DNA of 64,000 bases from a virus, in IMG/VR virus record IMGVR_UViG_3300045988_103014, positions 77,780-141,779 of that record; one strand, 5' to 3'. The notes under the pieces were generated by a model that saw only the letters and a list, made by a program, of their open reading frames with translations, ran no database searches and had not been told where the DNA came from. Below are positions 3,628-40,000 of this stretch, piece by piece. Each line of letters starts with the position of its first letter. Position 1 is the first letter of the stretch. The position numbers and the translations under genes were made by a program.

Positions 3628-3665
3628 AAGCCGGGGTGAAATTCACCTCGGCTTGATTTTTTATT
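3628..3665 (+). terminator. Rho-independent terminator after the Sak4 gene
   Basis: Hairpin AAGCCGGGGTGAAATTCACCTCGGCTT followed by GATTTTTTATT. Confidence 0.7.
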
Positions 3666-3681
3666 AAAATTTTGATATAAT
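3652..3681 (+). promoter_or_regulatory. Sigma70-like promoter, extended -10 (TTGATT-N18-TGATATAAT)
   Basis: TTGATT at 3652-3657 overlapping the terminator T-run. TGATATAAT at 3673-3681. Followed by SD and the ATG at 3719. Confidence 0.5.
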
Positions 3682-4384: not shown

Positions 4385-5912
4385 TAAATATGTAGATTTG
4401 ACTGCGGTTATGCAGGTCATCGGATGTGTGTATAACAATCCGGGATTATTAGAATTTACAGACAAATATACAATCGTTGATGAAGACTTCGCCGATGAGT
4501 TCCACAGAACGGTGTTCGGCGCAATTTATAAAATTCACGAAATGGGTGCAAATAAAATTACACTCCAACAGATTGAAGATTTCTTGAGCACAAGACCTAA
4601 ATCAGCAGCGAATTTTAAGGTTAATAAAGGTGAAGAGTGGATTGTGAAAGTATCTGACACTTGCACACCTTCAGCTTTTGATTATTACTATAACCGATTA
4701 AAGAAATTTACTTTACTCCGTGCGTATGATAATTTTGGAATTGATGTAACAGACATTTATGACCCGGACAATATCATGGATGTAAAGAAGAAACAACTCC
4801 AAGAGGATATAGTTGATAATTCAACACTTGAGCAAATCGCAGATAAAATTGATGAAAGAATTAACTCAATTCGTTTGCAATATGTTGATGACTCTTTTGG
4901 AGAGGCTTCACAGGCTGGTGAAGGTATTGACGAGTTAATTGAGAACTTTATGAAGAATCCAGAAGTCGGAGTACCTTTATATGGTTCACTTATTAACACA
5001 GTAACTCGTGGCGCAAGATTGAAAAAGTTTTATCTTCGTTCTGCGGCAACTGGTGTTGGTAAGACTCGTAGTATGATTGCGGATTCATGTTATATCGCTT
5101 GTTCAAAAATCTACGATGATACTTTTGGTTGGATTAGAACTGGTGGCGGTAATGAACCAGTATTGTTTATTACAACTGAGCAGGAATTAGCTGAAATTCA
5201 GACAATGATGTTAGCATTTATCTCAGGTGTAAATGAAGACCATATCTTAAATGGTAAATATCTCGGAGATGAATTAGACCGAGTAATGCAAGCAAAGGAA
5301 ATCTTAAAAGCAGCTCCATTATATGTTGAAGAGTTGCCAGACTTCTCGCTGAAAGATGTTGAAGATAAGATTAAGAAAAACATTCGTGACCACGATGTAA
5401 AATATGTGTTTCACGATTATATACATACTTCTATGAAAATCTTGGAAGAGATTACAAGACGAAGTGGTGGTATTAAGTTAAGAGAAGATAATATCCTATT
5501 TATGTTATCAAACAAATTAAAGGATATTTGTAATAAATATGGTATCTTCATTATGTCAGCTACACAGTTGAATGGAGATTATCAGACAAGTGAGACCCCT
5601 GACCAGAACTTATTGCGTGGTGCAAAGGCGATTGCGGATAAGATTGACTTTGGTGCAATTTTATTGTTAGCAAAACAGGAAGACCACGAAGCATTAACTG
5701 AAATCTTAAACTCAAATGTTTTTGATAAACCAACAATTAAAATGTCAATTTACAAAAACAGACGAGGAAGATATAAGGGTGTTTATCTTTGGTGTAAAGC
5801 AGATTTGGGTTGCTGTCGTATTGAGCCAATGTTCTGTACGACTTGGGACTACGAACTGGTTGACATAAATAATATCAAGATTATGATTGAAGAAGAATCA
5901 AGTGCATTCTAG
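4377..5912 (+). CDS. dnaB: DnaB-type replicative DNA helicase
   Basis: About 511 aa from the ATG at 4377 (SD GGAGGAG). The ORF track begins upstream at 4179 in the same frame. DnaB N-domain, Walker A LRSAATGVGKTRS, C-terminal RecA-like domain. Confidence 0.85.
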   Translation: MASKYVDLTAVMQVIGCVYNNPGLLEFTDKYTIVDEDFADEFHRTVFGAIYKIHEMGANKITLQQIEDFLSTRPKSAANFKVNKGEEWIVKVSDTCTPSAFDYYYNRLKKFTLLRAYDNFGIDVTDIYDPDNIMDVKKKQLQEDIVDNSTLEQIADKIDERINSIRLQYVDDSFGEASQAGEGIDELIENFMKNPEVGVPLYGSLINTVTRGARLKKFYLRSAATGVGKTRSMIADSCYIACSKIYDDTFGWIRTGGGNEPVLFITTEQELAEIQTMMLAFISGVNEDHILNGKYLGDELDRVMQAKEILKAAPLYVEELPDFSLKDVEDKIKKNIRDHDVKYVFHDYIHTSMKILEEITRRSGGIKLREDNILFMLSNKLKDICNKYGIFIMSATQLNGDYQTSETPDQNLLRGAKAIADKIDFGAILLLAKQEDHEALTEILNSNVFDKPTIKMSIYKNRRGRYKGVYLWCKADLGCCRIEPMFCTTWDYELVDINNIKIMIEEESSAF

Positions 5913-7773: not shown

Positions 7774-9537
7774 ATGGAATATCAACTTATTAAACCATTG
7801 CTCCCAGATAAAAATTTAACAGTGGTAGAGCGGGTTTTATCAAACAGAGGTATTATGCCGGAGAATATTCAGCATTACCTTAACACCACAGATGATGACA
7901 TTATTGACCCTACAATGCTTATGAATGTAGAGGTCGGTGCAAAGATGCTCATCAGACACATTTCACAAGGTGACGATGTTCTAATACAAATAGATAGTGA
8001 CTGTGATGGCTACACTTCTTCCGCAGCACTTATCAACTATTTGTACAGTCTTTTCCCTGGCTTTGTGAAAAACCATGTATTTTATCGTATCCATACGGGG
8101 AAACAGCACGGTATAATTCCACAAACAGTACCAGATAATATTAAGTTAGTAATTGCACCAGATTCAAGTTCAAATGATTATGATGAACACAAAGAATTAC
8201 ATGAAAAAGGAATTGACGTGTTGGTAATTGACCACCATGAGGCAGATGCTATTTCCGAGCATGCTTGCATCATCAATAATCAATTATGTGACTACCCAAC
8301 AAAATCCCTATCGGGAGTTGGTGTTGTCTACAAGTTCTGTAGCTATATTGATAGTTTAATGGGTGTATCAAATGCAGACTTGATTTTAGACTTAGTTGCA
8401 GTTGGTATGGTGGCCGACATGATGGATTTGCGTGATTACGAGACCCGACACTTGGTCACAAAGGGACTCGACAATATCCGCAACCCTTATCTCAAGGGGA
8501 TGGTACAGACCCAAAACTTTAGTATTTCTAAACATGGCGGGTTAGACCCCTTTGCGGTAAGCTTTTATATTGCACCTCAAGTCAACGCGACTATTCGTGT
8601 TGGCACGCAAGAAGAAAAGCTCATGCTATTCGAATCTATGCTTGACTATCGGGGATATGAACAAGTCCCTTCGACCAAACGAGGATGTAAGGGTCAAACA
8701 GAGACGAGAGTAGAACAGGCTTGTCGTAATTGCTTAAACATTAAGAATAGGCAAACAAAAGCAAGAGACACAAGCTTGAATACAATTGAACAGATAATTG
8801 AAAAAAATAATCTTTTAGACCACAAGTTTTTAGTAGTTAAACTTGAACCTGACTATGCTACTGATAGGAACCTTACTGGATTGATTGCAAACCAGTTGAT
8901 GGCTAAATATCAGAGACCAGTCCTATTACTGAACCGAGTTACAAATCCGGAAACTAAGGCAGTAAGCTGGGAAGGGTCAGGCAGAGGATACGACAAGTCC
9001 AAGTTTGACAACTTGAGAGAGTATCTCAAGACTACAGATTTGGTCATGTACGCTGAGGGACACGCAAATGCGCTGGGCGTAGGCGTAGAGGACAGCCATT
9101 TTTCTGAATTGGTTGACCGTGCTGACACGGACTTAAAAGATTATGATTTCACCCCATGTTATAAAGTAGATGAAATCTTCCACAGTTCTGACTTTAACGG
9201 AAATGATATTGTCGAAGTGGCTGAGTTAAAATCTATATGGGGCCAAGGAGTAGAGGAACCTATGATTGCGATTGAAGGTATAAATGTTACAAAAGCAAAT
9301 GTAACTCTGATGTCGCCTGATAAGAGCCCTACTTTGAAGATAACCTTGCCAAATGGCACGAGTTTAATTAAGTTCAGGTCGTCAAGTGAAGAGTATGAGA
9401 ACTTATGCTCTGAGCTTGGTTGTGTAACCATCAATGTTGTGGGAAAATGTGAACGCAACGTTTGGAATGGTAGTATTACTCCACAAATAATTATTGAAGA
9501 TTACGAAATTGTAGGAAGCACTCAATACTATTTTTAA
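7774..9537 (+). CDS. RecJ-like DHH-family ssDNA exonuclease / phosphoesterase
   Basis: 587 aa. SD AAAGGAGG. DHH motifs IDSDCDGYTSSAAL and VIDHHEAD. Confidence 0.8.
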   Translation: MEYQLIKPLLPDKNLTVVERVLSNRGIMPENIQHYLNTTDDDIIDPTMLMNVEVGAKMLIRHISQGDDVLIQIDSDCDGYTSSAALINYLYSLFPGFVKNHVFYRIHTGKQHGIIPQTVPDNIKLVIAPDSSSNDYDEHKELHEKGIDVLVIDHHEADAISEHACIINNQLCDYPTKSLSGVGVVYKFCSYIDSLMGVSNADLILDLVAVGMVADMMDLRDYETRHLVTKGLDNIRNPYLKGMVQTQNFSISKHGGLDPFAVSFYIAPQVNATIRVGTQEEKLMLFESMLDYRGYEQVPSTKRGCKGQTETRVEQACRNCLNIKNRQTKARDTSLNTIEQIIEKNNLLDHKFLVVKLEPDYATDRNLTGLIANQLMAKYQRPVLLLNRVTNPETKAVSWEGSGRGYDKSKFDNLREYLKTTDLVMYAEGHANALGVGVEDSHFSELVDRADTDLKDYDFTPCYKVDEIFHSSDFNGNDIVEVAELKSIWGQGVEEPMIAIEGINVTKANVTLMSPDKSPTLKITLPNGTSLIKFRSSSEEYENLCSELGCVTINVVGKCERNVWNGSITPQIIIEDYEIVGSTQYYF

Positions 9538-9578
9538 TTGCACAATATGCGGCCTAATAGAAATATTAGGAGGCTATT

Positions 9579-10487
9579 ATGAAAACAAAAATAACTAAGA
9601 AACTTGTAGCAGCAATGCTTATTATGGCATGTTTTTTAATGCTAGTAGGCATGGGTTGCCACGCGGGTACTAATACAACTTCGGAAGCTGACATCCCTTC
9701 TGAAACTATTGAAATGACAACTGAATATGAAGTTTGCACCGTACAAATGAATGATGTTGCTACTGTGGGAGCCGCATATGAAGTAGAGGAAGAGCCAATC
9801 GTGCTTGATGCCTCAGAAATTTCAGTAGTGGAAACCAGAGACAAATCGGAATTAGAAAACTTAATACAGGAAACTGAGACCAAGTTATCAGCTGCTCAGG
9901 CTATGCTTGAGAGCTGTCAGACTCTTGGTTATACAGATGATAATCCAGTAGTAGTATTAGCAAATGAAGAAGTAGCTAATATTCAAGCCGTACTTAATAC
10001 ATATAATGAGACTTATGCTGAGGTTCTAGTTGAGGTTAGAAACCAGGAGCGTATGGAAGAGTATCCTGCGGCAACTACAGTTTGGAATTATTTAACCCAG
10101 ACATTAGGTTACAGTGATGCGGTGGCTGCCGGTATCCTTGGCAATATGATGGCTGAAGTCGGTGGACAAACACTTGCTCTACAGCCAAGTATTTATGGGC
10201 ATTCATCGAATGGATATTATGGAATTTGCCAATGGAGCCTACGCTATTATCCTTCAGTAAATGGCGCAAGTCTTGAAGGACAGCTAGATTTATTGGCAAG
10301 TACTATCGAAGCTGAATTCAATGAATTTGGTTTTGTATCTGGATACTCTTATGAAGAGTTTTTACAGATTACAGACGAAAAGGCTGCAGCACTTGCATTC
10401 GCAAAGACGTATGAAAGATGTGGTTCTGGTAGCTATTCAGTAAGACAAAAAAATGCAACAAAGGCGTTAGAATACTATACTAATTAA
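9579..10487 (+). CDS. Secreted protein with C-terminal phage-tail-lysozyme-like (lysozyme2-type) domain
   Basis: 302 aa. SD TAGGAGG. N-terminal signal peptide (KKLVAAMLIMACFLMLVGMGCHAG). C-terminal AAGILGNMMAEVGGQ...YYGICQWS matches the G-N-x3-E-x-G ... Q-W pattern of phage tail lysozyme domains. Confidence 0.6.
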   Translation: MKTKITKKLVAAMLIMACFLMLVGMGCHAGTNTTSEADIPSETIEMTTEYEVCTVQMNDVATVGAAYEVEEEPIVLDASEISVVETRDKSELENLIQETETKLSAAQAMLESCQTLGYTDDNPVVVLANEEVANIQAVLNTYNETYAEVLVEVRNQERMEEYPAATTVWNYLTQTLGYSDAVAAGILGNMMAEVGGQTLALQPSIYGHSSNGYYGICQWSLRYYPSVNGASLEGQLDLLASTIEAEFNEFGFVSGYSYEEFLQITDEKAAALAFAKTYERCGSGSYSVRQKNATKALEYYTN

Positions 10488-10498
10488 AGGAGAGAGTT

Positions 10499-11011
10499 AT
10501 GAAGAAATCAATGATGTTTATGATTTCCTTGCTCTTAATCTTATGTATACTAACTCCAAGTATGGAAGTCCAAGCGGCGCAAAAGTATAAAACCGCACAA
10601 ACTGTGTGGGATTACCTCGACGAGCAAGGATATAATGATTATGTAAAAGCTGGCATTATAGGTAATATGATGGCAGAATGTGGTGGACAGACTTTAGCTC
10701 TCAATGCTGGGTGCAAAAGTAGTGCGCATTATGGTCTATGTCAATGGAGTCGCAAATATTGTCCAAATATGTATGGCGCTTCATTGAAAAGCCAGTTGAA
10801 ATATTTGAATAAAACAATGCCTGATGCTTTTAAGTATTATGGTAAAAGATATAAGGGCGGTTTTAATTTCAAGAAATTCAAAAACTTAAAAGATGAAAAA
10901 CAAGCCGCCAGAGCGTTTTCGCTTTGTTATGAACGGCCAGCCTCTAAGAATACTAAAAAGAGAGAGGCTAATGCTACTAAAGCATTAAAGTATTTTCGTT
11001 CTAAAAAGTAA
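10499..11011 (+). CDS. Secreted lysozyme2-like protein, paralog of the upstream gene
   Basis: 170 aa. SD AAAGGAGAG. Signal peptide MKKSMMFMISLLLILCILTPSMEVQA. KAGIIGNMMAECGGQ...HYGLCQWS. Confidence 0.6.
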   Translation: MKKSMMFMISLLLILCILTPSMEVQAAQKYKTAQTVWDYLDEQGYNDYVKAGIIGNMMAECGGQTLALNAGCKSSAHYGLCQWSRKYCPNMYGASLKSQLKYLNKTMPDAFKYYGKRYKGGFNFKKFKNLKDEKQAARAFSLCYERPASKNTKKREANATKALKYFRSKK

Positions 11012-11015
11012 TCAC

Positions 11016-11044
11016 GGGGAGCTGCGGCTCCCCTTATTTTTTTT
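11016..11044 (+). terminator. Rho-independent terminator
   Basis: GGGGAGCTGCGGCTCCCC followed by TTATTTTTTTT. Confidence 0.8.
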
Positions 11045-11317: not shown

Positions 11318-11346
11318 TTGATAATTATTAAAAAATGTGATATAAT
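11318..11346 (+). promoter_or_regulatory. Sigma70-like promoter, extended -10 (TTGATA-N17-TGaTATAAT)
   Basis: TTGATA at 11318-11323. TGATATAAT at 11338-11346. Confidence 0.5.
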
Positions 11347-11556: not shown

Positions 11557-12744
11557 ATGGAACTAACAAGAAAACAAGAAGAAGGATTGAAGATTGCTCT
11601 TGAACGCCATAGAAATCACGAAAAATGTACGGTTATTGCCGGCTATGCCGGTACTGGTAAGAGTACACTTGTTAAGTATATAATTGCGGCGCTCGATGTT
11701 GACCCCGCAAAGGTGTGTTATGCGACCTTCACAGGGAAGGCAGCGCAAGTCTTAATCAAAAAGGGTAATAAAAATTCTTTAACCCTTCACAAACTTTTAT
11801 ATGATAGTATTCCTCGTCCAGCAGGCGGGTTTATGAGAATTCCAAAGAAGCAGCTTGACTACAGTGTGGTTGTAGTTGATGAGGTTTCAATGGCACCAAA
11901 AACAATTATGGACTTACTGTTTAAACATAATGTCTATGTAATTTGTTTAGGTGACCCATTCCAGTTGCCTCCAATAGACAAGGATGAAGATAATCACTTA
12001 CTTGACCATCCGCATGTATTTTTAGATGAAATTATGCGTCAGGCCGCAGAATCGGAAATCATTCGTTTAACAATGGACATTCGTGCGGGCAAGCCTTTGG
12101 TAAATTCAAGAGGTAATCAAGTTCATGTAGTAAGCAAAAATGAACTTGTAGATGGAATGTACTCTTGGGCTGACCAGGTGCTTGTTGCAACAAATGATAC
12201 TCGTCACGCAATAAATGACCAGATGCGTCAGATGAAAGGGTTCGGTCCAGAACCTTGCGATGGAGATAAGATTATTTGCTTGCGTAATTACTGGGGTATC
12301 TGTTCTGAAGAGGGCGCTGGTGACCCACTTGTTAATGGTACTATTGGAACTTTAACAATGCCAAGAAAAGATTTTATTGAGGTTCCTTATTACGCATATC
12401 GTCCTGGTAGAATTGATATTCTTGCTGGTGGATTTGTGTCTGATACTGGCGGAGATTATGGTGAGCTGAATATGGACCCAAAGATTATCCTTGGTGCAGA
12501 AAGTGATTTGGAATGGAGAGATAAGTATAAACTGGGTAAGCTTGCGGACCGCATTGGTGATGTAATTCCAAAAGAGTTTGCATATGGATATGCAATTACT
12601 TGCCACAAGGCGCAGGGTTCTGAATGGGATAAGGTTCTTGTGGTTGAAGAAAATTTCCCAAGAGTAAAAGAAGAGCATGCGCGCTGGCTATACACAGCAG
12701 CAACAAGAGCAGTAGATAAATTAGTGATTAGGAGAAAAGAGTAA
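11557..12744 (+). CDS. Dda/RecD-like SF1 DNA helicase
   Basis: 395 aa. Walker A AGYAGTGKST, Walker B VVVVDEVSM, C-terminal ITCHKAQGSEWDKVLVV. Confidence 0.8.
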   Translation: MELTRKQEEGLKIALERHRNHEKCTVIAGYAGTGKSTLVKYIIAALDVDPAKVCYATFTGKAAQVLIKKGNKNSLTLHKLLYDSIPRPAGGFMRIPKKQLDYSVVVVDEVSMAPKTIMDLLFKHNVYVICLGDPFQLPPIDKDEDNHLLDHPHVFLDEIMRQAAESEIIRLTMDIRAGKPLVNSRGNQVHVVSKNELVDGMYSWADQVLVATNDTRHAINDQMRQMKGFGPEPCDGDKIICLRNYWGICSEEGAGDPLVNGTIGTLTMPRKDFIEVPYYAYRPGRIDILAGGFVSDTGGDYGELNMDPKIILGAESDLEWRDKYKLGKLADRIGDVIPKEFAYGYAITCHKAQGSEWDKVLVVEENFPRVKEEHARWLYTAATRAVDKLVIRRKE

Positions 12745-23880: not shown

Positions 23881-24432
23881 ATGTGGGAAACAGTTGGAGC
23901 AATTATGCTCAAATATTGGGTAGAATTCCTGCTGGGCTTGATTGTCACCGGCGGTGGATTCCTGTTAAAGCATCATCTTAAACTGGTAAAAGCAGAACGT
24001 CTCAGAGAGCAGAAAGAGCTAATTCTTACAATGCAAGAGGATAACCGCAAACAAATCCAAGAAATTATGGAAGATTGCGTAGGCATTGAAGACGAAATTG
24101 AAGAAAGATGTCGTCAAGCCTATTCTGATTTTACGGATGCTTTAATAAAAGACCGAGAGTCTTCTAAAACCGAAGATGAAAAATTAGAGCATTATATTGA
24201 TGCAGTCCAAGCTGAAGTTGGGGTACTTAAAGCTGGACTACTTTCCGTTCAAGGTAAGCAGTTTAAAGATAATTGTCGTACTTTACTTGACAGTAATCAC
24301 AAAATTAGTCTTGATGAATGGGAAGAAATTGATGCTGACCATGACGCATATAATGGATTAGGTGGTAATCATACCGGAGACCATCTTTATGAGTTAGTTA
24401 AAAAGAAAGCTGAAAAACAGTTATCTGAATAA
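23881..24432 (+). CDS. Membrane-anchored coiled-coil protein, hypothetical
   Basis: 183 aa. SD AAGGAGGG. N-terminal TM helix, then charged coiled-coil-like sequence. Confidence 0.55.
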   Translation: MWETVGAIMLKYWVEFLLGLIVTGGGFLLKHHLKLVKAERLREQKELILTMQEDNRKQIQEIMEDCVGIEDEIEERCRQAYSDFTDALIKDRESSKTEDEKLEHYIDAVQAEVGVLKAGLLSVQGKQFKDNCRTLLDSNHKISLDEWEEIDADHDAYNGLGGNHTGDHLYELVKKKAEKQLSE

Positions 24433-24443
24433 TCCAAAATTAA

Positions 24444-24480
24444 GGGGAGAGTATATATAATACTCTCCCCTTTTTTATTT
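24444..24480. terminator. Bidirectional rho-independent terminator between the convergent early and late modules
   Basis: Perfect hairpin GGGGAGAGTATATATAATACTCTCCCC with T-runs on both sides. Confidence 0.85.
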
Positions 24481-24678
24481 TCCAGACTCCCAATGCGGCT
24501 CATCTTGCGATTCCATTGCGGCAACAATGGTGCAATAATAAACTGTCTCTGCGAGGTCTTTAATCATATCAACTACTTCGCCCATTTCGGAGGTGCAAAC
24601 TCCATCAAGATTATCTAGTTGGTCATGAACTTTATCTGTTAAAGCGTGTTGAATTTCATTTAGCATTTCAATATCCAT
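24475..24678 (-). CDS. Small acidic protein, hypothetical (cassette gene 5)
   Basis: 67 aa. SD AAAGGGTGG. Confidence 0.45.
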   Translation of the reverse strand: MDIEMLNEIQHALTDKVHDQLDNLDGVCTSEMGEVVDMIKDLAETVYYCTIVAAMESQDEPHWESGK

Positions 24679-24679
24679 T

Positions 24680-25114
24680 TTACGCCACCCTTTCTACAAT
24701 CAAATTTGCATTTTGAATATCAATATCAATTCCACTTGTGATATTCTTAATTGCGATTGTGGTGCAACATCCAATAGGAACATCGACTAAAAATTCTGTT
24801 CCAACACTATATGTTGAAGTGGTGTCTCCAACAGTAATAGTCATTGTGGATGTTGGGATTGTCTCGCCATCGCGCGATGCTGCGAGGGATAATAAAGTTA
24901 CTCCGATGATAGTTTCATCGGCATTGGCTTTCATGTTACCTGTAAAAGTAACACGGAATCTTGCGCGGCGCTGTCCATTTGGCAACCCGCGCAAAGTTAC
25001 TAAGCCACTATCCTCTACATGAATAATACTACAATTACCAGGTACTACTGTTGTAGTAAATAATACATTATCGTTTGAAACGACTTTTTGAATAGTATTA
25101 GCAGTAATTTCCAT
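24680..25114 (-). CDS. Beta-rich small protein, hypothetical (cassette gene 4)
   Basis: 144 aa. SD AAGGAGG 6 nt before the ATG. Thr/Val/Ile-rich. Confidence 0.55.
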   Translation of the reverse strand: MEITANTIQKVVSNDNVLFTTTVVPGNCSIIHVEDSGLVTLRGLPNGQRRARFRVTFTGNMKANADETIIGVTLLSLAASRDGETIPTSTMTITVGDTTSTYSVGTEFLVDVPIGCCTTIAIKNITSGIDIDIQNANLIVERVA

Positions 25115-26653: not shown

Positions 26654-27049
26654 TTATTTACATTCGTTTACACAAGCCTCAATCTGAGTTGTAAGATATA
26701 CATTCAAATCTCCAAAAGCCTCAGTCAAAATAGCTTTTGCTTCTTCACTTAAAATCTGTTCAACAGCTAATGCAGTCTTTGAAAAAGCAGCTTTCTGCGC
26801 CTCTGGGTCAAACTTACCTTGAGCCTTTAATGTGTTAACATATGTCTGATTTGTTGCAATTACACAAGCAGTAATTGTATCTGCTGCGATTGCAATATAC
26901 TTGTCAAGTAAGTCATTCTGTGACTGAATAACAAGCTGGTCGCTCTTTGCCTTAATATACTTTACAAGAAAAGCAGTAAGAACGCCCAATAGAGGAATTA
27001 CACATACCTCAAAAATTTCTGTTAATAGTTGTAATACTTCAGGTGTCAT
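26654..27049 (-). CDS. Holin, LL-H-like family (single N-terminal TM + long soluble tail)
   Basis: 131 aa. SD AGGAGG. TM CVIPLLGVLTAFLV followed by KYIKAKSDQ... matches the organisation of LL-H-type holins. ATGA overlap with the upstream gene. Confidence 0.55.
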   Translation of the reverse strand: MTPEVLQLLTEIFEVCVIPLLGVLTAFLVKYIKAKSDQLVIQSQNDLLDKYIAIAADTITACVIATNQTYVNTLKAQGKFDPEAQKAAFSKTALAVEQILSEEAKAILTEAFGDLNVYLTTQIEACVNECK

Positions 27050-27801
27050 AAACTATAACCTCCTATTTTTCTTTTATAATGAACAGAGTCTAATAAATAA
27101 TCTACTCCTTCATCTTCATCATCTGACCAGGCGGATGCTATTGTATAGTTACCACCTTCATTGAATGAATTGTGAAGAGTTTTAAGTAGATGAATAAAAT
27201 CCTCTGAATTCATATCTGATATAAAAATAACATATTGTCCATCTTCGCCAGTATAGCATCTCATTGCGTTACAAATAATACGGCAACGATTAAGAACATC
27301 TATACTATCAGTTTTCAATAAAATTACTCCAAGAGATGCACCAAAGTCTCTGCGGAAATGATTGATTGCGGCCTCAAGCTGTTCAGCTTTTGCAACCTTC
27401 GAACGAGCCTCCGCGAAACTATCTTCTAATACTTTATCGTTGATTTCTTTGATTACTAAAATAACCTCATTTGTGGTCTTATAATCTTTTGGTTTATAAA
27501 ACTCAGCGCATACCCACTTATATGAGTTTGCCGCGGTTAATCTACGATAGTAGCAGTTTAATGGTGAATTCTCTTTCTTAAAATGTCTCTTTACTGCGTA
27601 GATATCAACGAAATGTAAAAAGTATGGAATATCAAGCGGGTGAACATGAGTTCCCGCATATTTCATACACCAGTTTGTGATTGCGCGGTCAAGGACTTTT
27701 TCTTCTTTTGGAAGTTTAATAACTTCAAATTCTTCTGTAACTAAGTTGATTTTTAACACTTTTGAATAAGTGTCAAGTAGAAATTGCTCTAGATTTAGCA
27801 T
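27046..27801 (-). CDS. Hypothetical protein translationally coupled to the holin, candidate lysis-associated protein
   Basis: 251 aa. SD AAGGAGG. No signal peptide or TM. No recognisable murein-hydrolase motif. Confidence 0.6.
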   Translation of the reverse strand: MLNLEQFLLDTYSKVLKINLVTEEFEVIKLPKEEKVLDRAITNWCMKYAGTHVHPLDIPYFLHFVDIYAVKRHFKKENSPLNCYYRRLTAANSYKWVCAEFYKPKDYKTTNEVILVIKEINDKVLEDSFAEARSKVAKAEQLEAAINHFRRDFGASLGVILLKTDSIDVLNRCRIICNAMRCYTGEDGQYVIFISDMNSEDFIHLLKTLHNSFNEGGNYTIASAWSDDEDEGVDYLLDSVHYKRKIGGYSL

Positions 27802-27919: not shown

Positions 27920-30900
27920 TTAACGTACCTTAATCCAAATACGTCCATTAACTTTAACTGGGTCACGGTCTGCTAGTTCACCACCACCCCATTCTTCATA
28001 ATCAGGTACGCAAGAAACAGTACCAACAATGCGGTCTGGATACATTAAAACTTCTTCACGAGTCATAATGTCCACCTTGCCACCAGGAGCTGCACAAACA
28101 CAATCTCCAGGTTTATAATTATCGCGGTCTTGATATGGATAAGCAAGAACGCGTCCCGCAACTGCGATATTAGTTTTTGCTTCATCAGTCTCACCTTGAC
28201 TAAAGCCCCAAGTATCTGAAACAATACCTGCGAAGTGTTGAAGTCTTTGAGTAGTTTTTACCAAAGAATCATCTCCCACCTCAGTCATAACATAACCAGG
28301 TTCTTGAGAATCAGCTCGACGACACTCGGCATAGTCATTCCATACCGCACCAGTAACAGAGTCTCCTTGTAGCCAGAACTTACTCCATGCACTTGTTGTA
28401 CCATTGCCTTCAGCTGTGGCTGTATAGACATTGTTACGACCCCAGAAGCTAAATGCCATAAGACGCTTGTAATAAGCATCTCCTTGGCCATGGTTAAACT
28501 TAAGTACATGATACCAAGATGAGCCTGGACTATCAATATCACCCGCAGGGAATGATGTCTGAAGATATTGTAAACAATTGGATAAGCCTTTTGTGTTATT
28601 GATATTTAATACATTAGCTCCTGATGCAGTTGTCGCTGTAGCTGCATTACCAGTAATACTAATACCCCAAGTGCCACTATTATATACCAAACGTTTCCAA
28701 GCATTCCAGCCGCCTCGGTCAGAACTGCGTGTACGGAAATACATCTCATTATTCCAACCGTCTCCATAGATTTGATGTTTATATGCAGAATTCGTGGCAT
28801 AATCAAGGGTGGTAACAACTCCCCAACTTCCAGGTAAACCATGGTTGCTATAAGCAAATATCATGCCAGTAGCATCATTTACATTTTGTCCACTTCCAGA
28901 AGTCCACCATCCAGAATATCGTAAATAACGAGGGTCTGTATAGCTTGTAAAATTAGACGTATCTAAAACTCGTGTCCACGCGCGACCTTCAATATTACCT
29001 GAAGTGGTACGATACCACATTCCAGCTCCTGCTCCAACTCCTAATGCGAGCTGAGAAACCCATGATGATGTTACCCCATGATTCCAAGTTTGTGACCATG
29101 CATGTACCCATTGAGCGCCTCCCGTTGGATTATCTGTCGCAGCATAAATCATACCACAAGAAGATGCATTGTGCGCTGCCAATTGAGTAAATGTAACACC
29201 ACTACTATTACCATAATTGGCACTATTAAAAATTTTACATACATTACTAGTGCCGCTAAAATAACTTGTACCATTTACATGTAATCGATAGCTTGGTGCT
29301 GTTGTACCAAGGCCCATACCGGTAGCTGTCATAACAAGACCATTCGCGCCGTCTGAAGAATTTCGAGAAATACAGAAATTATTATCTGATTTTCTGTGAA
29401 TAGACCATGCATTGGCATTGGTGCCAGAGTCTGCGGTTGCGCCTAAGATAATTGTATTCCAAGTACCATCAGCACCTCTTAAACGGATACCTTCTCTATA
29501 GTTACCGCAAGTTGAGTTGATAATCATTTGTCCATTTGAACGAATACCATATGCGGCTCCAGTAGAAGTTCTTACATCTAGTCCATAATCATAAGTACTA
29601 TTTTTATCCATAATAATACCCCAGTCATTACTAGAGTAAGTTCTAAAATATGCCAAACCGTCATATTCATTATTGCTAGCATCGTTAATAACAACTAATT
29701 GGTCAAATTGTCCTCTTGAAGTTTTTATATTGTCTGTACCAGAAACGGTGCTACTTACATTACCAATAGGTGCAGTTGAGAAATCAATAACCCAATCTGC
29801 ATTATTCCAATATTTATATCCCCAGTTACTGAATCCAATTACCACATCTCTAATTTGAACTTGTGGATATGACCATACAGTACTTGCGCTACCAATCATA
29901 ACTGCAGATTTGTTATTTAATTCACCAAATGCAACAGTAAGATTCTGTTTATCTTGTCCATGATGACTTAAACATTCAGCGGTATAAGAATGCCAAACAC
30001 CATCATAATAATTGTATCCAGAAATGGCATAAGATACAGAAGTATTAGTAGCATAATTATAAATATCTACAATGAATTTCATCATAGTATTACTTCTATA
30101 TACTGGCAGTTGAATTCTTAAATAACCTGTAATAGAAGATGTAGTAGTTGTATAATGACCCCCACGAGGATAAGTCACAAAACCGTCCTTACCAGTTGCT
30201 TCGGCTCTCAAAGGACCATCAGCCCAAGTAAAACCACTTGAATCAATAGAAAATACATTTCTATTATTATGTCTTCTAAATACCCAACCACGATTATTTT
30301 GGTCATTCATAGTAAAATAGGTTGCCCAGTCTGCAGTAACCCAACCGTGAGTACCTAAGTTACCAGTGCCTCTAAACATAATTCCATATGATGAGGAATC
30401 GCTATATAGAGTAATACCACCATCTGTACTAGAGCCACCTCTGTTAGCATGTAACCAACGAGTAGACATTGAACTCCAGAAATAACTGCCATTACCATTA
30501 ACCCAAGCATTATTGCTTTCAGGCAATAGATTTTGAGTCCATAACTGACCGTGTATCCAGCTTTCACCATTAGCATATAATCTATATGCAACATTAGTAC
30601 CATTGATGCCGATAGAACTATTAACAGTCATGTGACCTTGAGCACTAATAGAAGCAACATTTCCAGTGCCAGTATTTCTAAATACCCATCCACGTCCAGT
30701 AGTATTTGACATGGTAAAGTATGTTGCCCAGTCCGCGGTAACACTACCATGTGTCCCCATATTACCAGTACCACGGAAGAAAATACCATAACTAGTATCT
30801 TTATTACCATATAAAGTAATACCACCATCAGTCGATGAGCCAGCAACATTAGCCATAATCCATTGTGAATAAGTGTTATTCCAATAATTAGAGCTTAATC

Positions 30901-33739
30901 CTAAATTACGATTATTATTAGTATAAGGGAATAAATTTCCATCAACTGCAATTTGTTTATTAAAGTAAAACTGTGAACAAGTAGTTTGGAAATGTGTCCA
31001 AGCACTATTTAGATTACCAACCTCTAAAACATATCCATAATTCTGAATTTTAACCGCACCAAGAATTCTCCATCTTTCATTATCATGTTGTGCAACCCAA
31101 TTACCATTGGAATCACAAGGTCCAAGGTAATTTTCATTACTAACACCATTATAACCAATGCCACCCCAATACGAACCGCTTTTGTTCCATCTTAAAGCTG
31201 GATAAACAGTAGAGTTAAGGTTAATATACATTGGACTCGTTGTATATAAACTAGTACCTGTAATACCCAAATTTACGATTGGAATAGACGTAAAATTAGC
31301 AACAGTAATATCTGCACTTGTCTCAATTTTTGTTTGAGTAAAATCATAGCCAGGAGCTGTATCATGTACGAGCATGTTAGAAATTTGTATGCCCCTATAA
31401 TGGTCTGTTCCAGCATAAACGTAGAAAATTGCAGGATTAGCAATGTCATAATAAATTTTTACTGTTGACATATTGATACCAACAGCAATACCTCTTACGT
31501 TATTTACAATCCATTTTTTATCAGTACCATTCCAAGAAAAGTAATAAGCTAATTGGATTTTTCCACTTTCACCACTACTATAAGGACCTCCAACCGTGAT
31601 GTCCATAGAAATCATAAACCATGCATTACTACCACTAGAAAATCCATTGTAAGGCAAAGTAACCTTATAGAATTTACTACCAGCAGCAGAACCTATCCAA
31701 GGATAACTACGATTGCTTTGACGAATTGCAGTACCAAGATTGATATTTCTCCATCTTAATGATGTTGTTCCTAGGTCATAGATATTATCTACATTAGAAC
31801 GCACGTGAGACTGTACGATTTCTAATGTACCTTGTGTCTGCGCACTATTGGCAGCAAACACGCTCTTATCTGCGATTCCTAAACTAACTGTCTTAGAACT
31901 TGCAGTATATTTTAAACCAGCCCATTTATCATAATCCCAATTATCTGCACCAAAACGGATTGAAGTATTATTTTGAAAAATAACTTCTCCTCCGATGGCA
32001 TTAACATAAGTGGAACCAATTAAAATACCTTTATGACTAACGCCATATGAGGTTGTAATTAAATCGTTAAAATAACTTGTACCATTAACAAAGAACTGAT
32101 AACCAACATTTTCTCCGTTAACACCAAGCTTATTAGAAATTCTCCAGTTACCATAAGTATCTGAACGTAACATACCAGTAGTCGAAGAATTGCTGCCACT
32201 GTGAGTAATATAAAAATTACCATCATTATTACTTATATGCCAAGATTTTGCATTATATCCTGAATCTCCAACCGCACCCATAACAATCATTGACCAGTTA
32301 TCTGGGGCGAATCCAATTCTTAAACCCTGTCTTGCATTGTCACTCGTAGGCTTAATTCTAACACAACCATTAAAAGTTTTATCGCCGCTTAATTCTTGGA
32401 TTGTATCTTTAGCTCCTGCAGTAATGACACCAGCATTAGTAGTACTAGCAACAGGCATGTTGATTGAAACTGTATTACCATTACCAATGGTATATTTTAA
32501 TTGCGGTTGAGTCGCATGATTTACATATTCAATGGCTTTAATATATGTTGAATAAATAGTTTGTCCCGCGCTATCTTGAGTCGCTTTTGTTGCAGTTGAT
32601 GCATTACCATCAAGTGCGGCAACGATATGACCATTTTCTAAAAATTTAATCTGTGCGGTTGCGCTATTAGCACCAGCATTATAGTTCGCATCAGTGCAAT
32701 ATGAAAATATTAAATCATCTGTATAAGAAGCGTGGTCATAGGCTCCTATATCCCACGAACCATTAGTTGTTTTTATTGAAATCGCAGGAGAATATCCATG
32801 AATAGAAGTCATTCGTACCAACGCTGAAGTACGGCCGTTAATCCATGAGGTGCTAACTCCATCTTTAATTAACTGTCCCGTAAAAGTCTTATTGCCAGCA
32901 ATAGTCTGTGCGCCTGTGGTAATTAAACCTGCGGTCGTTGTACTTGCATTCGGAATTGTAATCAAATCGCCGGCATCACTACCATTACCGTATTTACCTC
33001 TAAAAGTAAATTGTGTTCCATTAGAAGTAATCTGCTTAATCTCGTGAATATAAGTGGCACGAATAGAAGTTGTATCGCCTTTTGCTTTATCTGCGTAGTT
33101 TGCATTTTCAATAGTACCATCTGTAAAAGCAATTTGTTTCCAGGGTTTTGCAGTATCAATTACTGCATTACTAAAACTACGATAATAAATATTTCCATTA
33201 GAAGAAAAACCTAATTGAGAATCATAATTACCACTATATCTACTAATTTGTAAAATGCCATTTGAATTATCTGTTGCTGGCATATTACCTGTAGCATCAG
33301 AATATGTATTATAATAATACTTAATTTTTCCTGCGCCCGGGTCGTCAGTTGGTAAAGTTTGTACTTGCGCACCGTTTATCAAGTCTGCACTTAATGCAGA
33401 GCCGCCACAACTTCCAGAAGCCGCAAAATGTAAATCAACATCATTAGATGAACCATTACCTTTGGTTACTGTAAATACATAATGATTTGTTGTTTTATCA
33501 TCATTTTGTTTTTTTGCTACGGCAGCAACATATTTTGAACGAATCGTTTCATTTGTCGCATCACCGTCAGCTCGTGTAGCCACATCAGCTTTATCTGCGT
33601 GCGCGCCGATGCGGACACGCTTTGATGCCGAAACATCGACATACATGTTACCCTCGTCAGTGGTAACATATGCCCAACCCTCCGTTTTAGTAGCCGGAAG
33701 GTTTTTTTCTTGACCTTTCAATATTTTGAATAAAGCCAT
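27920..33739 (-). CDS. Giant tail fibre / receptor-binding protein with HylP-like N-terminal anchor and internal repeats
   Basis: 1939 aa from the ATG at 33739 (SD GAGGT 7 nt upstream). The ORF-track GTG is at 33754. N-terminus MALFKILKGQEKNLPATKTEGWAYVTTDEGNMYVDV. Repeated A-S-T-T-x-A-G-(L/V)-I-T motifs. Gly/Ser/Thr/Asn/Trp/Tyr-rich. Confidence 0.7.
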   Translation of the reverse strand: MALFKILKGQEKNLPATKTEGWAYVTTDEGNMYVDVSASKRVRIGAHADKADVATRADGDATNETIRSKYVAAVAKKQNDDKTTNHYVFTVTKGNGSSNDVDLHFAASGSCGGSALSADLINGAQVQTLPTDDPGAGKIKYYYNTYSDATGNMPATDNSNGILQISRYSGNYDSQLGFSSNGNIYYRSFSNAVIDTAKPWKQIAFTDGTIENANYADKAKGDTTSIRATYIHEIKQITSNGTQFTFRGKYGNGSDAGDLITIPNASTTTAGLITTGAQTIAGNKTFTGQLIKDGVSTSWINGRTSALVRMTSIHGYSPAISIKTTNGSWDIGAYDHASYTDDLIFSYCTDANYNAGANSATAQIKFLENGHIVAALDGNASTATKATQDSAGQTIYSTYIKAIEYVNHATQPQLKYTIGNGNTVSINMPVASTTNAGVITAGAKDTIQELSGDKTFNGCVRIKPTSDNARQGLRIGFAPDNWSMIVMGAVGDSGYNAKSWHISNNDGNFYITHSGSNSSTTGMLRSDTYGNWRISNKLGVNGENVGYQFFVNGTSYFNDLITTSYGVSHKGILIGSTYVNAIGGEVIFQNNTSIRFGADNWDYDKWAGLKYTASSKTVSLGIADKSVFAANSAQTQGTLEIVQSHVRSNVDNIYDLGTTSLRWRNINLGTAIRQSNRSYPWIGSAAGSKFYKVTLPYNGFSSGSNAWFMISMDITVGGPYSSGESGKIQLAYYFSWNGTDKKWIVNNVRGIAVGINMSTVKIYYDIANPAIFYVYAGTDHYRGIQISNMLVHDTAPGYDFTQTKIETSADITVANFTSIPIVNLGITGTSLYTTSPMYINLNSTVYPALRWNKSGSYWGGIGYNGVSNENYLGPCDSNGNWVAQHDNERWRILGAVKIQNYGYVLEVGNLNSAWTHFQTTCSQFYFNKQIAVDGNLFPYTNNNRNLGLSSNYWNNTYSQWIMANVAGSSTDGGITLYGNKDTSYGIFFRGTGNMGTHGSVTADWATYFTMSNTTGRGWVFRNTGTGNVASISAQGHMTVNSSIGINGTNVAYRLYANGESWIHGQLWTQNLLPESNNAWVNGNGSYFWSSMSTRWLHANRGGSSTDGGITLYSDSSSYGIMFRGTGNLGTHGWVTADWATYFTMNDQNNRGWVFRRHNNRNVFSIDSSGFTWADGPLRAEATGKDGFVTYPRGGHYTTTTSSITGYLRIQLPVYRSNTMMKFIVDIYNYATNTSVSYAISGYNYYDGVWHSYTAECLSHHGQDKQNLTVAFGELNNKSAVMIGSASTVWSYPQVQIRDVVIGFSNWGYKYWNNADWVIDFSTAPIGNVSSTVSGTDNIKTSRGQFDQLVVINDASNNEYDGLAYFRTYSSNDWGIIMDKNSTYDYGLDVRTSTGAAYGIRSNGQMIINSTCGNYREGIRLRGADGTWNTIILGATADSGTNANAWSIHRKSDNNFCISRNSSDGANGLVMTATGMGLGTTAPSYRLHVNGTSYFSGTSNVCKIFNSANYGNSSGVTFTQLAAHNASSCGMIYAATDNPTGGAQWVHAWSQTWNHGVTSSWVSQLALGVGAGAGMWYRTTSGNIEGRAWTRVLDTSNFTSYTDPRYLRYSGWWTSGSGQNVNDATGMIFAYSNHGLPGSWGVVTTLDYATNSAYKHQIYGDGWNNEMYFRTRSSDRGGWNAWKRLVYNSGTWGISITGNAATATTASGANVLNINNTKGLSNCLQYLQTSFPAGDIDSPGSSWYHVLKFNHGQGDAYYKRLMAFSFWGRNNVYTATAEGNGTTSAWSKFWLQGDSVTGAVWNDYAECRRADSQEPGYVMTEVGDDSLVKTTQRLQHFAGIVSDTWGFSQGETDEAKTNIAVAGRVLAYPYQDRDNYKPGDCVCAAPGGKVDIMTREEVLMYPDRIVGTVSCVPDYEEWGGGELADRDPVKVNGRIWIKVR
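30200..31000 (-). repeat. Two tandem copies of an approx. 130-aa protein repeat inside the 1939-aa fibre gene
   Basis: GSSTDGGITLY(G/S)...G(I/M)(F/M)FRGTGN(M/L)GTHG(S/W)VTADWATYFTM...RGWVFR occurs twice about 134 aa apart. The DNA copies have diverged. Confidence 0.6.
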
Positions 33740-33860
33740 ATTTTTTAACCTCACTCTCTAAGCTTTTGGTTATACACCACTCGGCTTTAAAATTTTTTGT
33801 TTTTAATCTCTTATATATATAGATTTTACTATTAGTTTTTTAACATATCTTGGCCAATAA

Positions 33861-37007: not shown

Positions 37008-40000
37008 TTATGAAGTAACGATAATGTTATGGTCTACAGCTTCACTTAACTGGAAGTTTACGCTTTGACCACTCTTACCGAATGTCAGACTTGAGAAGTA
37101 GCTCTGTCGGTCAGCAGTACAATAAATATCTAAGTGCTGAAGTGCCTTATCATTATTGTTTTCAACAACATTAGTGTCAACAAATGTTAATTGAGATGGG
37201 TCACCAGGACCTCCAATCGTCAATTTATTCATTTGACCTTTAGTATAAGAGAATACTGAAGTACCTAATCTCTTAATACCGCCTCCAAGAGTAAGATTAA
37301 AACTGGTCTGACCTGTTGGATTAGCTAATGCTTGGTTAAATGCATTGTCTTGAATACGATAAACCTTACCACCAATGGCTGTTACAACCAATGATGAACA
37401 TCTGGTAAAGCAACTTGCATCTAAAGTTCTTAAAGACTCAGGGAAGTCAACATGCTTCAAACGAGTACAACCTTGGAAGGCTGACATTCTAATAGCACGA
37501 ATTCGACAGTCATTTAACTCATCATGTACAAAATATACATGAGTAACATCACTCTGGTTTACAAATCCTTCATAAGCAACGCCTAAAACAGATTTTCCAC
37601 CATGAGCAACTGGTAAAGTAACTTTACCACTTAATTTAACTCCTGGTTTAACCTGAATTTCAAAACCATCCTCGTTGTAACTTGGATTGTCTGTATCTTC
37701 ATAGTAAGTAGGAACAAACTCAAAGTACTTATCATCTGTAGCGGCATCATATACAGATTCTTTTACGAATACTGCATAGAAAGTGTTGTCTACAGTAGCC
37801 TGAATTGAAGCCACGTTTACTGTCTTAGCCTTGCTTGCGCTTGCGGCTAATACTGCGTTTCTATCCTGCGTCCAACCTAAGAATCTATATCTTTCATCAT
37901 CTTCAAGTGAAGACTCATCAAGACTAGGAACGATATTTGGAACAGGGATGAAGTCTCCGAAAAGAACTCCTTCACGAGCAACCTCAGTAAAGTTGCCAGC
38001 CATACCGCTCATGAACTTCATTTGGAATTCATGTCGAGTAAATACAGCATAGAAAACATAATCGTGAACTGTTGTATCAGTAACCTTAGTAGCGTCGCTT
38101 GTATTCCAATCACCTTCTGTAATAATACCACTATCATCATTAGTTGTTGACCAACCATGGAAATCGTAGTTATCTCTCTTAGCCTCATACTTAGCATAAG
38201 GATTTAAGAAACGATTTCTCGTACTAATTGAAGAAGAAGGTAATACCTGCTTATCAATAATAGTATAAGTTCCATCTGGCTCAAGCTGCATGAATGTAGC
38301 TGTATAACCAGGATTTACGTTCTTGAAGTGGATATCAAGTTTAGCACCAGGAATAGCACTATCTGCTAATAATGTGTTACGAATTGTATCTTCATCAACA
38401 GCTGTGTCGTTATCTACATAAACACTACCTGTTAAAGTAGGTACTGAAAGACCAGTAGAAGTAGTGTTCTTAAACTGTGCATCTGCAATAAAGTCAAGTA
38501 ACATCTGGATGTCAGTAATCTTGTGAGAATCTGCCTCTAACTCTGGTAAGTAATCATAAACCTCACCATTTAAGATGTCTGTCTGCCAGTTCGAATCTGC
38601 TCCAGTGTACTTCTTAAATCCGTAGTGACCATCATCTGTATAATACTGATGATTGTTGATTTTCATCACACCTGGGTCAAGTTTCTTATAAGGTGACCAT
38701 TCTACGTCAGTAAGTGATAACTTCAAGTCTTTCTGACCTGCACTCTCACCGAACTTGAAGATTTTATACAACTTGTTAACCAAGTCATATGAACCGTAGC
38801 CTAAGCTACCCCCAGCTAATTCTAACTGAGCCAAGTTACATGAAGTAGTATTAGGAACAACCTCTTTCACATTTGTAAGACCTTCAATATACAATCCCTT
38901 TCTTGCAACCCATTCACCAGTAGCTGGGTAATAAGTTGAATAATAAGTATTTGTCTCTGGGTCTTCATATGGTGTAGTAGATTCATCTTTTCTTGCCTTA
39001 GCTGCAGCAACCATTGCAGGCATATCGAAATCAAGAACTGTGTCAAGATTTGCGGCTTCAACTAACTTAAGTCCTTGTAATGAACTTGGCAAGTATAATG
39101 TATCAAGTGCAACACCATCTGCGAACTTAACAGATAAAATATTAGAACGTACAGCCTTAAATACTTGCAACTTTTCAGAAGAAGTAAAGTCGTAGTTCAA
39201 AATACCAGTAGTATCAAGTTCTAGGCCCGACATGTTAACTTCCTTAAGCAATGGCTTACCCATAACTGAGTTAGTTGTTGAGTCGAAGTCAGGTGACTTC
39301 AAGCCTTTGTTGAAGAAGAATGGATGGTCATTACCAAGTAACAGCTTAGAAACATGTGGACAGTTCTTAGCGTAAAACTCAGTCCAATATAATCTACTGA
39401 TATCACCGATACTCTCAAGAGTATCTGCACCATATAAGTAAATCAATGACTCTGATAAGTTAGGAGAGTTCATGATACCTTGCTTCTGAGCTTCTGGCAA
39501 TTCGTAACGAACTATTGTTCCAGTATACTCTTTTGAAGGCAAGGCGTTAACGTCTACACCTAAAGTAACATATGATTTCTGATATGGCTTTAAGTCTACC
39601 CAGAACTCTGCGTCTAAGTAGTTGGATTTAATTCTATTACCTTGCTCATCCAACTTACCATCAGGTGTGTAGTATGGAACTACATCAAAATCAGGAGCTG
39701 AAGAATCCGCAATAGCAATCCAGTGGTCGGAGAATTTATCTTTCTTATTGGCACCGATACGACCATGAATTTCAGTACCATCACCACGAGCATAGTTACC
39801 TTGTGAGAACCAAGAGTCAATGAAGTTCAAACGTCTAGCAAGGAACTGCTGTCTTGAAAGACTTCTGTTACCCTGTAATGCATAGAAGTAAGTACCATTA
39901 TCATCAACGCTTACGCCGCCACCCTGGTTCTGATAACCGATTAAGTTGTTACAAATACTTAAATACTTGAACTGCTCATCCATATTAAACATACACAGAG

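Follow-up and report, generated by a model that had tools for sequence, protein, structure and literature searches.

Two paralogous genes with a phage-type lysozyme domain

This analysis concerns two adjacent genes, ORF1 and ORF2 (ORF, open reading frame), in a 64,000-nucleotide stretch of viral DNA, positions 77,780 to 141,779 of the IMG/VR record IMGVR_UViG_3300045988_103014 (hereafter, the window). Both genes lie inside a replication module and very probably encode Sec-exported peptidoglycan glycosidases of the family that comprises gp13 of phage phi29 and the 'MUR' domain of PrgK from pCF10. Their coordinates, and those of the other features discussed, are gathered in Table 1. Each ORF opens at the first start codon available in its own frame and is preceded by a Shine-Dalgarno sequence; that of ORF2 overlaps the stop codon of ORF1, so that translational coupling from ORF1 to ORF2 is plausible. 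The two proteins are paralogues (48% identity across 143 amino acids (aa), E = 8e-43 in BLASTP), as a previous sequence-only reading of this DNA had proposed, and both ORFs as well as the motifs that it had picked out (AGILGNMMAEVGGQTLAL...YYGICQWS in ORF1 and AGIIGNMMAECGGQTLAL...HYGLCQWS in ORF2) were found where that reading had placed them. An antisense ORF (9566-9883, 105 aa, TTG start) was considered as an alternative gene and dropped, as the sense frame has strong homology support.

Both proteins match the Pfam profile PF18013 (Phage_lysozyme2, 140 positions) above its gathering threshold of 28.2 bits: ORF1 with 62.9 bits (E = 4.8e-17, profile positions 3-140) and ORF2 with 75.3 bits (E = 6.9e-21, profile positions 1-140). 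The lysozyme-like fold for which the sequence-only reading had asked a profile search is therefore predicted for both. In the PDB, sequence similarity extends only to phi29 gp13, in its N-terminal lysozyme-like domain (3CSR, E = 7.6e-5). This domain is the founder of PF18013 (PDB 3CSR/3CSQ), and its fold is the one predicted here. In the alignment gp13 Glu45 pairs with ORF2 Glu60, and the equivalent Glu is invariant across family alignments of 62 and 51 sequences, inside the block AGIIGNMMAECGGQTL. Glu45 is the proposed catalytic residue of gp13, and muramidases of glycoside hydrolase family 184 (GH184), which are related in structure, cannot do without the corresponding residue (PMC10394673). 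The AlphaFold models of both proteins are confident, with a predicted local distance difference test (pLDDT) score of 93.9 for ORF2 and 88.0 for ORF1. Since the homologous domain of PrgK, a protein of the pCF10 type IV secretion system (T4SS), was shown to be a muramidase and not a lytic transglycosylase (bioRxiv 10.1101/2024.02.15.580431), muramidase chemistry is the best inference for ORF1 and ORF2, one that draws on the GH184 enzymes as well. By this analogy the two proteins are most likely N-acetylmuramidases that act through the conserved Glu.

The distance to these reference proteins is considerable. The fungal GH184 muramidases (PDB 8B2E, 8B2H) are secreted eukaryotic proteins of a different CAZy family, with ~10-12% identity. 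Phage phi29 gp13 is a signal-less virion tail-tip protein in which the lysozyme-like domain is fused to an M23 D,D-endopeptidase, whereas ORF1 and ORF2 are predicted to be exported, have one catalytic domain, belong to a replication operon and share just ~21-25% identity with gp13.

Export signals and domain architecture

Both ORF1 and ORF2 have a single N-terminal hydrophobic segment behind a Lys-rich n-region, and none further downstream. The N-terminus of ORF2 (MKK-SMMFMISLLLILCILT-PSMEVQA/AQ, the slash marking the predicted cut) has a hydrophobic core of 15-16 residues and is, by sequence rules, a textbook signal for signal peptidase I (SPase I). That of ORF1 (MKTKITKK-LVAAMLIMACFLMLVGMG-C27-HA/G) has an 18-residue core that runs up to VGMG-C27. 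Lipoproteins were recognized by the PROSITE rule PS51257, that is, a lipobox whose Cys falls within positions 15-35 behind a charged n-region; ORF1 (...ACFLMLVGMG-C27) satisfies it with an atypical Gly at -3 and Met at -2, and orthologues at the same genomic position have canonical lipoboxes (...IVSGC in L019 and ...IIVGC in L023). Among the 67 members of the family, 60 carry an N-terminal hydrophobic segment (several of the other seven appear truncated) and seven a lipobox. Sec export of both proteins is well supported by these signals. The cleavable signal peptides seen in the sequence-only reading thus fit the sequence rules, and most relatives have the same N-terminal feature; ORF2 would be secreted, whereas ORF1 is probably tethered to the membrane, as a lipoprotein or through its long linker, rather than free. 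A signal-arrest-release (SAR) endolysin was also considered for ORF1 and set aside, given that its h-region is strongly hydrophobic (12-residue Kyte-Doolittle maximum of 2.9) and is followed by the lipobox-like Cys.

In the AlphaFold model of ORF1, a signal helix (aa 2-24) is followed by a disordered and very acidic linker (~aa 25-80), a helical hairpin (89-115 and 123-161, pLDDT >95) and the catalytic domain (163-301); ORF2 is made up of the signal and the catalytic domain only. The hairpin motif is common to most long members of the family, where it precedes the catalytic domain with the consensus AH..AE.AR.LGY.EDHPVI, and it could act as a stalk, a dimerization element or an autoinhibitor. 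No wall-binding domain was found in ORF1 or ORF2; a CW_7-like repeat is present in some orthologues (P0063, L031 and L061). The paralogues also differ in charge. ORF1 is acidic (isoelectric point (pI) of 4.2, or 4.05 for the mature protein), as are 58 of the 59 long forms in the family, and mature ORF2 is strongly basic (pI 9.8, net charge +19); the catalytic domains of the three short forms (ORF2, P0002 and P0004, 170-172 aa) have net charges of +16 to +19. We infer that ORF1 would be a tethered enzyme of limited reach and ORF2 a free one, held electrostatically on the anionic wall.

These architectures can be compared with those of the other PF18013 proteins. Within the genomes of Ruminococcus, Acutalibacteraceae and Oscillospiraceae, the nearest relatives combine a transmembrane (TM) segment, a CHAP domain and PF18013 in proteins of 444-455 aa and ~750 aa; in the Ruminococcus proteins the PF18013 domains are ~45-50% identical to ORF1. 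Proteins of this type, of 455 and 752 aa, are found in conjugative elements (L047, also L042), and the chromosome of Ruminococcus sp. JL13D9 (NZ_CP162392.1) has two copies. Set among TrbL, a VirB4-like ATPase, a sortase and a MobL relaxase (L047, 2202-17932), one JL13D9 protein is, judged by its gene neighborhood, a T4SS wall hydrolase like PrgK. PrgK and other hydrolases of Gram-positive T4SS present the same gp13-type domain outside the membrane, behind an N-terminal anchor and a spacer that limits its reach. Nevertheless, PrgK-type proteins are multi-domain (LytM and/or CHAP), serve channel assembly and are encoded in T4SS clusters with TrbL, a VirB4-like ATPase and a relaxase, whereas ORF1 and ORF2 lack the CHAP, NlpC and LytM domains of the PrgK/CwlT class and have no T4SS neighbors in the window. 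A second group is of virion type and has no signal: a 696-aa protein with M23, a CHAP-like domain and two PF18013 domains (L018, 8396-10486), and a 294-aa protein with PF18013 and M23 as in gp13 (L028, 9980-10864), encoded near a homologue of the 1944-aa fiber protein of the window. With their predicted export and one catalytic domain, ORF1 and ORF2 would represent a third PF18013 architecture next to the T4SS and virion types.

A predicted replication operon and a gene order conserved in related phages

The neighboring genes of the module are homologues of YorF, YorG (AAA_24), YorH, YorI, YorJ, YorK and YorL of SPbeta, and the RecJ-like protein finds its best GenBank matches in SPbeta-type phages (YorK, ~36% identity). 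Operon boundaries were taken from consensus scans. These place a promoter behind the terminator that marks the upstream boundary, no terminator-like site on the + strand between that promoter and the hairpin that follows ORF2, and the next strong promoter beyond ORF2 at 11318-11346. ORF1 and ORF2 would then be the final genes of a unit that also comprises the YorH-like, DnaB-like and YorJ-like genes, small ORFs and the RecJ-like nuclease, in agreement with the earlier proposal that they are transcribed together with the primase and RecJ-like genes from an early promoter. An internal promoter-like site may add transcription of the primase, the RecJ-like gene, ORF1 and ORF2. No PADLOC or NCBIfam match was obtained for ORF1, ORF2 or the small ORFs downstream.

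Table 1. Features of the ORF1/ORF2 locus and of the lysis genes. Positions refer to the window, except for the upstream lysin cluster, which is given in the coordinates of L065; domains, signals, promoters and terminators are predictions.
Feature	Position	Strand	Details
Intrinsic terminator and promoter	3628-3681	+	terminator 3628-3654; sigma-70-type promoter TTGATT-17-TGnTATAAT, 3653-3681
Internal promoter-like site	5860-5887	+	TTGACA-16-TATGAT, 11/12 consensus matches
RecJ-like DHH exonuclease (YorK homologue)	7774-9537	+	Pfam DHH, RecJ_OB; upstream neighbor, conserved in synteny
Shine-Dalgarno of ORF1	9568-9573	+	AGGAGG
ORF1	9579-10487	+	302 aa; predicted exported, probably lipid- or membrane-tethered gp13-type muramidase
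ORF1 signal peptide and Cys27	9579-9659	+	signal aa 1-26; Cys27 of lipobox-like VGMGC; alternative SPase I site after Ala29
ORF1 helical hairpin	9843-10061	+	aa 89-161; motif A-x-x-M-x-E-x-x-x-x-LGY-x-(D/E)-x-x-P-V-(I/V)
ORF1 PF18013 domain	10071-10478	+	aa 165-300; putative catalytic Glu193 at 10155-10157
Shine-Dalgarno of ORF2	10487-10492	+	AAGGAG; overlaps the ORF1 stop codon
ORF2	10499-11011	+	170 aa; predicted secreted gp13-type muramidase without wall-binding domain
ORF2 SPase I signal peptide	10499-10576	+	aa 1-26; predicted cut at VQA/AQ
ORF2 PF18013 domain	10589-10996	+	aa 31-166; putative catalytic Glu60 at 10676-10678
Strong intrinsic terminator	11016-11043	+	GGGGAGC-TGCG-GCTCCCC (hairpin 11016-11033) and T-run; five bases past the ORF2 stop
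RecD/PIF1-like superfamily 1 (SF1) helicase	11557-12744	+	downstream neighbor, conserved in related phages
Holin	26654-27049	-	phrog_13712, E = 2.9e-32; sole recognizable lysis gene in the window
Upstream lysin cluster	L065 7157-10993	replication strand	ELLD+SH3, 336 aa; PF18013+Amidase_2 with SH3-like C-terminus, 566 aa; ELLD+SH3, 330 aa

Among the 50,697 GenBank phages searched, the gene is carried by no sequenced isolate: blastn with 6 kb of DNA returned only a 95-bp match at chance level and tblastn with ORF2 returned none. The genomic context was therefore drawn from metagenomes. An identical ORF2 is present on at least 11 gut-metagenome contigs, the longest of 193,905 bp. The order RecJ, PF18013 protein, RecD-like helicase, DnaE recurs in at least seven contigs (L013, L015, L019, L022, L023, L027 and L031; 36-150 kb where the length is known), whose replication proteins share 40-77% identity with their window counterparts, and a partial version that begins at the lysozyme gene occurs in a contig of a metagenome-assembled genome (L061). 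A single copy is the rule in these syntenic contigs, of the short basic type in L013 and otherwise of the long type, whereas the phage of the window has both. The placement of an exported PF18013 gene in the replication module is thus conserved in the related clade and not an oddity of one genome. The same module order exists without the PF18013 gene in Enterococcus phage H1. In other lineages of large phages, the exported PF18013 gene is usually on the same strand as, and 4-10 kb from, genes of DNA metabolism or auxiliary function (NrdDG, DnaE, ligase, PhoH, Metallophos). The lineage of L010 and L014 has it ~200 bp past a holin and a NAGPA-SPOR protein, just ahead of a dUTPase.

Lysis genes of the phage

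The only peptidoglycan hydrolases recognized among the scanned window ORFs of at least 100 aa are ORF1 and ORF2. The scan covered these ORFs except 260-1111, 1208-1561, 1581-2522, 60497-60889, 60923-61402 and 61425-63863, and ORF 52732-53076 was compared with PHROGs only; for the first three of the ORFs left aside, the precomputed Pfam annotation of L001 gives YorF only. At the right end of the window, no record was retrieved for the 811-aa product of 61425-63860, possibly because the gene is called with another start. Pfam and PHROG scans found no hydrolase signature in the ORFs around the holin or in the giant tail proteins, and a pattern-based IMG/VR search for relatives of the window holin returned nothing that could be confirmed. 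A 251-aa ORF on the - strand (27046-27801) overlaps the start of the holin gene by four bases and has no Pfam, PHROG or NCBIfam match. It occupies the position of the blyA endolysin in SPbeta-type phages; a cryptic endolysin was considered here, for which Pfam and PHROG give no support.

Outside the window, on the same 193.9-kb contig (ENA ERZ27229741 k119_387515), three adjacent lysin genes lie ~10-13 kb upstream of the window start. All three lack a signal peptide, and they stand just ahead of the genes for RNase H, gyrase B/A and NAD-dependent ligase, far from the holin. In the 566-aa protein, PF18013 shares just 28% identity with ORF2. From their domain architecture, these SH3-bearing genes are the obvious candidates for the cytoplasmic endolysins of the phage; ORF1 and ORF2 are therefore not its sole lysins. 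Their location also qualifies the weight that the sequence-only reading had given to the replication module: the two lysozyme genes are indeed part of it, but their position says less about function than had been supposed, because even the canonical lysin genes of this phage lie away from the holin.

Possible roles of the putative exported muramidases

Several scenarios may explain the presence of exported muramidases in a replication operon. The one that we favor, as a tentative choice to which we would give somewhat less than an even chance, is that ORF1 and ORF2 are auxiliary exported lysins that pre-load the wall before holin-triggered lysis. In that case, expression of both genes, which close the helicase-primase-RecJ operon at its 3' end, would start with the replication phase and continue thereafter. 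ORF1 would remain on the outer face of the membrane, held by a lipid anchor or an uncleaved signal and carrying its acidic disordered linker of ~55 residues and its hairpin stalk, and its reach would be restricted to the inner wall layers. ORF2, small, very basic and devoid of a wall-binding domain, would be released and stick electrostatically to the anionic Gram-positive wall. The two enzymes would build up in the wall during infection, restrained as long as the membrane is energized, until the holin collapsed the proton-motive force and they helped the three cytoplasmic SH3-bearing endolysins to break the wall.

The restraint in this scenario is modeled on Lys44 of Oenococcus phage fOg44, a Sec-exported muralytic enzyme with a cleavable signal peptide of the kind predicted for ORF1 and ORF2. 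In Lys44 and in the engineered SP-LysSPP1, activity is held back by the proton-motive force and freed by the holin, which makes build-up during infection harmless (PMC6116005). We favor the auxiliary role because Sec-exported endolysins can accumulate harmlessly in this way and because one lineage has the exported PF18013 gene beside a holin. Yet, the parallel is incomplete. Lys44 is the endolysin of its phage; it comes from another catalytic family, carries a wall-binding region at its C-terminus and has its gene beside that of the holin. ORF1 and ORF2, by contrast, have no wall-binding domain, are separated from the holin by 16 kb, on the opposite strand, and share their genome with three endolysin-type genes of canonical appearance. 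Exported endolysins (e-endolysins) are encoded in the lysis cassette, and ORF1 and ORF2 in a replication operon. Other observations weigh against an auxiliary lytic role. The conserved place of the gene is the replication operon and not the vicinity of the holin, most other phage lineages also place it among genes of DNA metabolism or auxiliary function, and three canonical-looking endolysin genes are already present, so that an extra lytic enzyme is not obviously needed. The absence of a wall-binding domain from both proteins points the same way.

Alternatively, ORF1 and ORF2 could condition the wall during replication without lysing the cell, for instance by slackening the sacculus so that the infected cell can go on enlarging, through an effect on septation, or through muropeptides released as growth signals, as with Rpf/Sps factors. 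The holin and the cytoplasmic endolysins alone would then lyse the cell. We regard this as rather unlikely, though it is the most serious of the alternatives. The separate canonical endolysins of this phage suit it, as does the retention of the gene between the RecJ-like and RecD-like genes in at least seven contigs whose replication proteins have diverged to 40-77% identity, and a tether and stalk would limit reach as they do in the T4SS hydrolase PrgK. A further argument comes from YorM, an N-terminally anchored putative cleaver of glycan strands of the Sps family (3D domain PF06725, MltA-like). Like ORF1 and ORF2, YorM is encoded within the YorF-to-YorL replication module of SPbeta-type phages (SPbeta and phi3T; PMC1084345, PMC10516654, PMC10653849), and the master repressor MrpR binds its promoter, a sign of de-repression early on (PMC10516654). 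However, the yorM gene directly follows the DnaE gene and not a RecJ-like gene, and it comes with a repressor-controlled promoter of its own. ORF1 and ORF2 have no match to the 3D domain (PF06725) in the Pfam search, and YorM is a positional and architectural analogue of them, not a homologue; under wall conditioning it would be their non-homologous equivalent. Nevertheless, a role of this kind is not known from any phage, YorM included, and Enterococcus phage H1, whose module lacks the gene, indicates that a replication module of this type can do without the function. The broader idea that SPbeta-type replication modules hold a conserved non-lytic wall-conditioning function, an exported glycan-strand cleaver of limited reach supplied convergently by PF18013 in the gut clade and by the 3D domain of YorM, is a little less likely still.

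Another possibility is that the enzymes act outward, in a bacteriocin-like attack on neighboring cells, by stripping receptors against superinfection or by shedding adsorbed phages. ORF2, small, freely secreted and cationic (+19), resembles lysins without wall-binding domains that work from outside, and early expression would suit exclusion functions. Yet, no superinfection-exclusion system with a muramidase is known, PADLOC gave no match, and the family is mostly made up of acidic, tethered proteins, an unlikely design for enzymes that diffuse to other cells. This explanation thus seems improbable.

The view of ORF1 and ORF2 as the principal endolysins of the phage, exported as Lys44 is and with the holin as a mere trigger, seems more doubtful yet. 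It agrees with their being the sole recognizable peptidoglycan hydrolases in the scan of the window and with the lack of a hydrolase signature in the 251-aa ORF that takes the usual endolysin position next to the holin, and the e-endolysin precedent exists (Lys44; PMC6116005). Nevertheless, the three signal-less lysins ~10-13 kb upstream have the classic architecture of Gram-positive endolysins. The 'signal-peptide endolysin' put forward by the sequence-only reading is thereby weakened as a sole role, and it is its auxiliary version that we favor. Finally, the same reading had considered misplaced virion lysins, which would serve wall penetration at entry. The naming of PF18013 after the tail lysin gp13 and PHROG matches that include a tape-measure family agree with this, but it can be rejected with little hesitation because Sec signals would take the proteins out of the cytoplasm, where virions assemble, and, in addition, the genes belong to a replication operon on the strand opposite the tail genes and encode single-domain proteins, whereas the true virion-type relatives (L018 and L028) are signal-less and fused to peptidases.

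There are precedents for the PF18013 domain itself, for phage lysins exported through Sec and for gp13-type muramidases on an anchor. The novelty lies in the exported form with PF18013 as stand-alone catalytic domain, in the division of that form into two classes by charge and tether, in its fixed place within the replication operon of a clade of uncultured SPbeta-like gut phages and in the convergence with YorM. Phage wall hydrolases are commonly divided by the stage that they serve, with virion lysins at entry and endolysins at exit, and ORF1 and ORF2 would be a third deployment of a known fold. If they are auxiliary exported lysins, the e-endolysin concept would extend to phages with several lysins. 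If they act before lysis, some large Gram-positive phages would manipulate wall architecture during infection, which would also hint at the purpose of YorM; should wall conditioning be correct, the acidic tethered and basic free classes could each be suited to a different depth of the wall, one to its inner and the other to its outer layers. Under either reading, enzybiotics against anaerobic gut Firmicutes might be built on the small, cationic ORF2 type without wall-binding domain.

Other features of the window and of related contigs

The window belongs to the genome of a large, uncultured gut phage, and its G+C content is 0.35-0.42 (in 2-kb steps). Genes of replication and nucleotide metabolism occupy the + strand up to ~24.4 kb, and tail, fiber and holin genes the - strand beyond. 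The GC skew changes sign and the cumulative skew peaks at ~24 kb, where convergent + and - transcription meets (about 24000-24700). Five giant proteins are encoded on the - strand (27920-33754, 37008-44435, 47245-52725, 53094-57416 and 57413-60490; 1944, 2475, 1826, 1440 and 1025 aa, respectively). Pfam detects in them only traces of BppL_N, BspA-type LRR_5 and Phage_fiber_2, and the fiber or adhesin apparatus may thus be unusually elaborate.

A 264-aa exported PF18013 gene with a NrdD-like gene ~4 kb upstream has the same locus position in Oscillospiraceae bacterium C18_42_OV_BP (L050, a 259-kb contig), in Clostridiaceae bacterium strain 9 (L053) and in an IMG/VR viral contig (L025). Prophages or phage-plasmids are possible sources of these loci, through which a culturable host might be obtained. 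In L010, a sequence that resembles the D-arm of a transfer RNA (tRNA), TCAGCTGGTAGAGCAGCTGA, lies between the holin and the exported PF18013 gene (~9888-9907) and possibly belongs to a tRNA gene.

In some of the IMG/VR relatives, the RecJ-like and NrdD genes are broken only by in-frame TAG codons (L023, 7857-9641 and 16645-18891; L027, 7897-9549 and 16400-18754; L019, 6971-7990), and the primase is likewise fragmented. The RecJ-like gene has seven such codons in L023, where the true stop is TAA, and six in L027. TAG falls at a Gln position where the window RecJ reads HTGKQHGI and L023 reads QEGK*HGI, and elsewhere L023 has TAG where L027 has Gln. This pattern points to a TAG-to-Gln recoding in part of the clade, replication genes included, with the standard code in the phage of the window.

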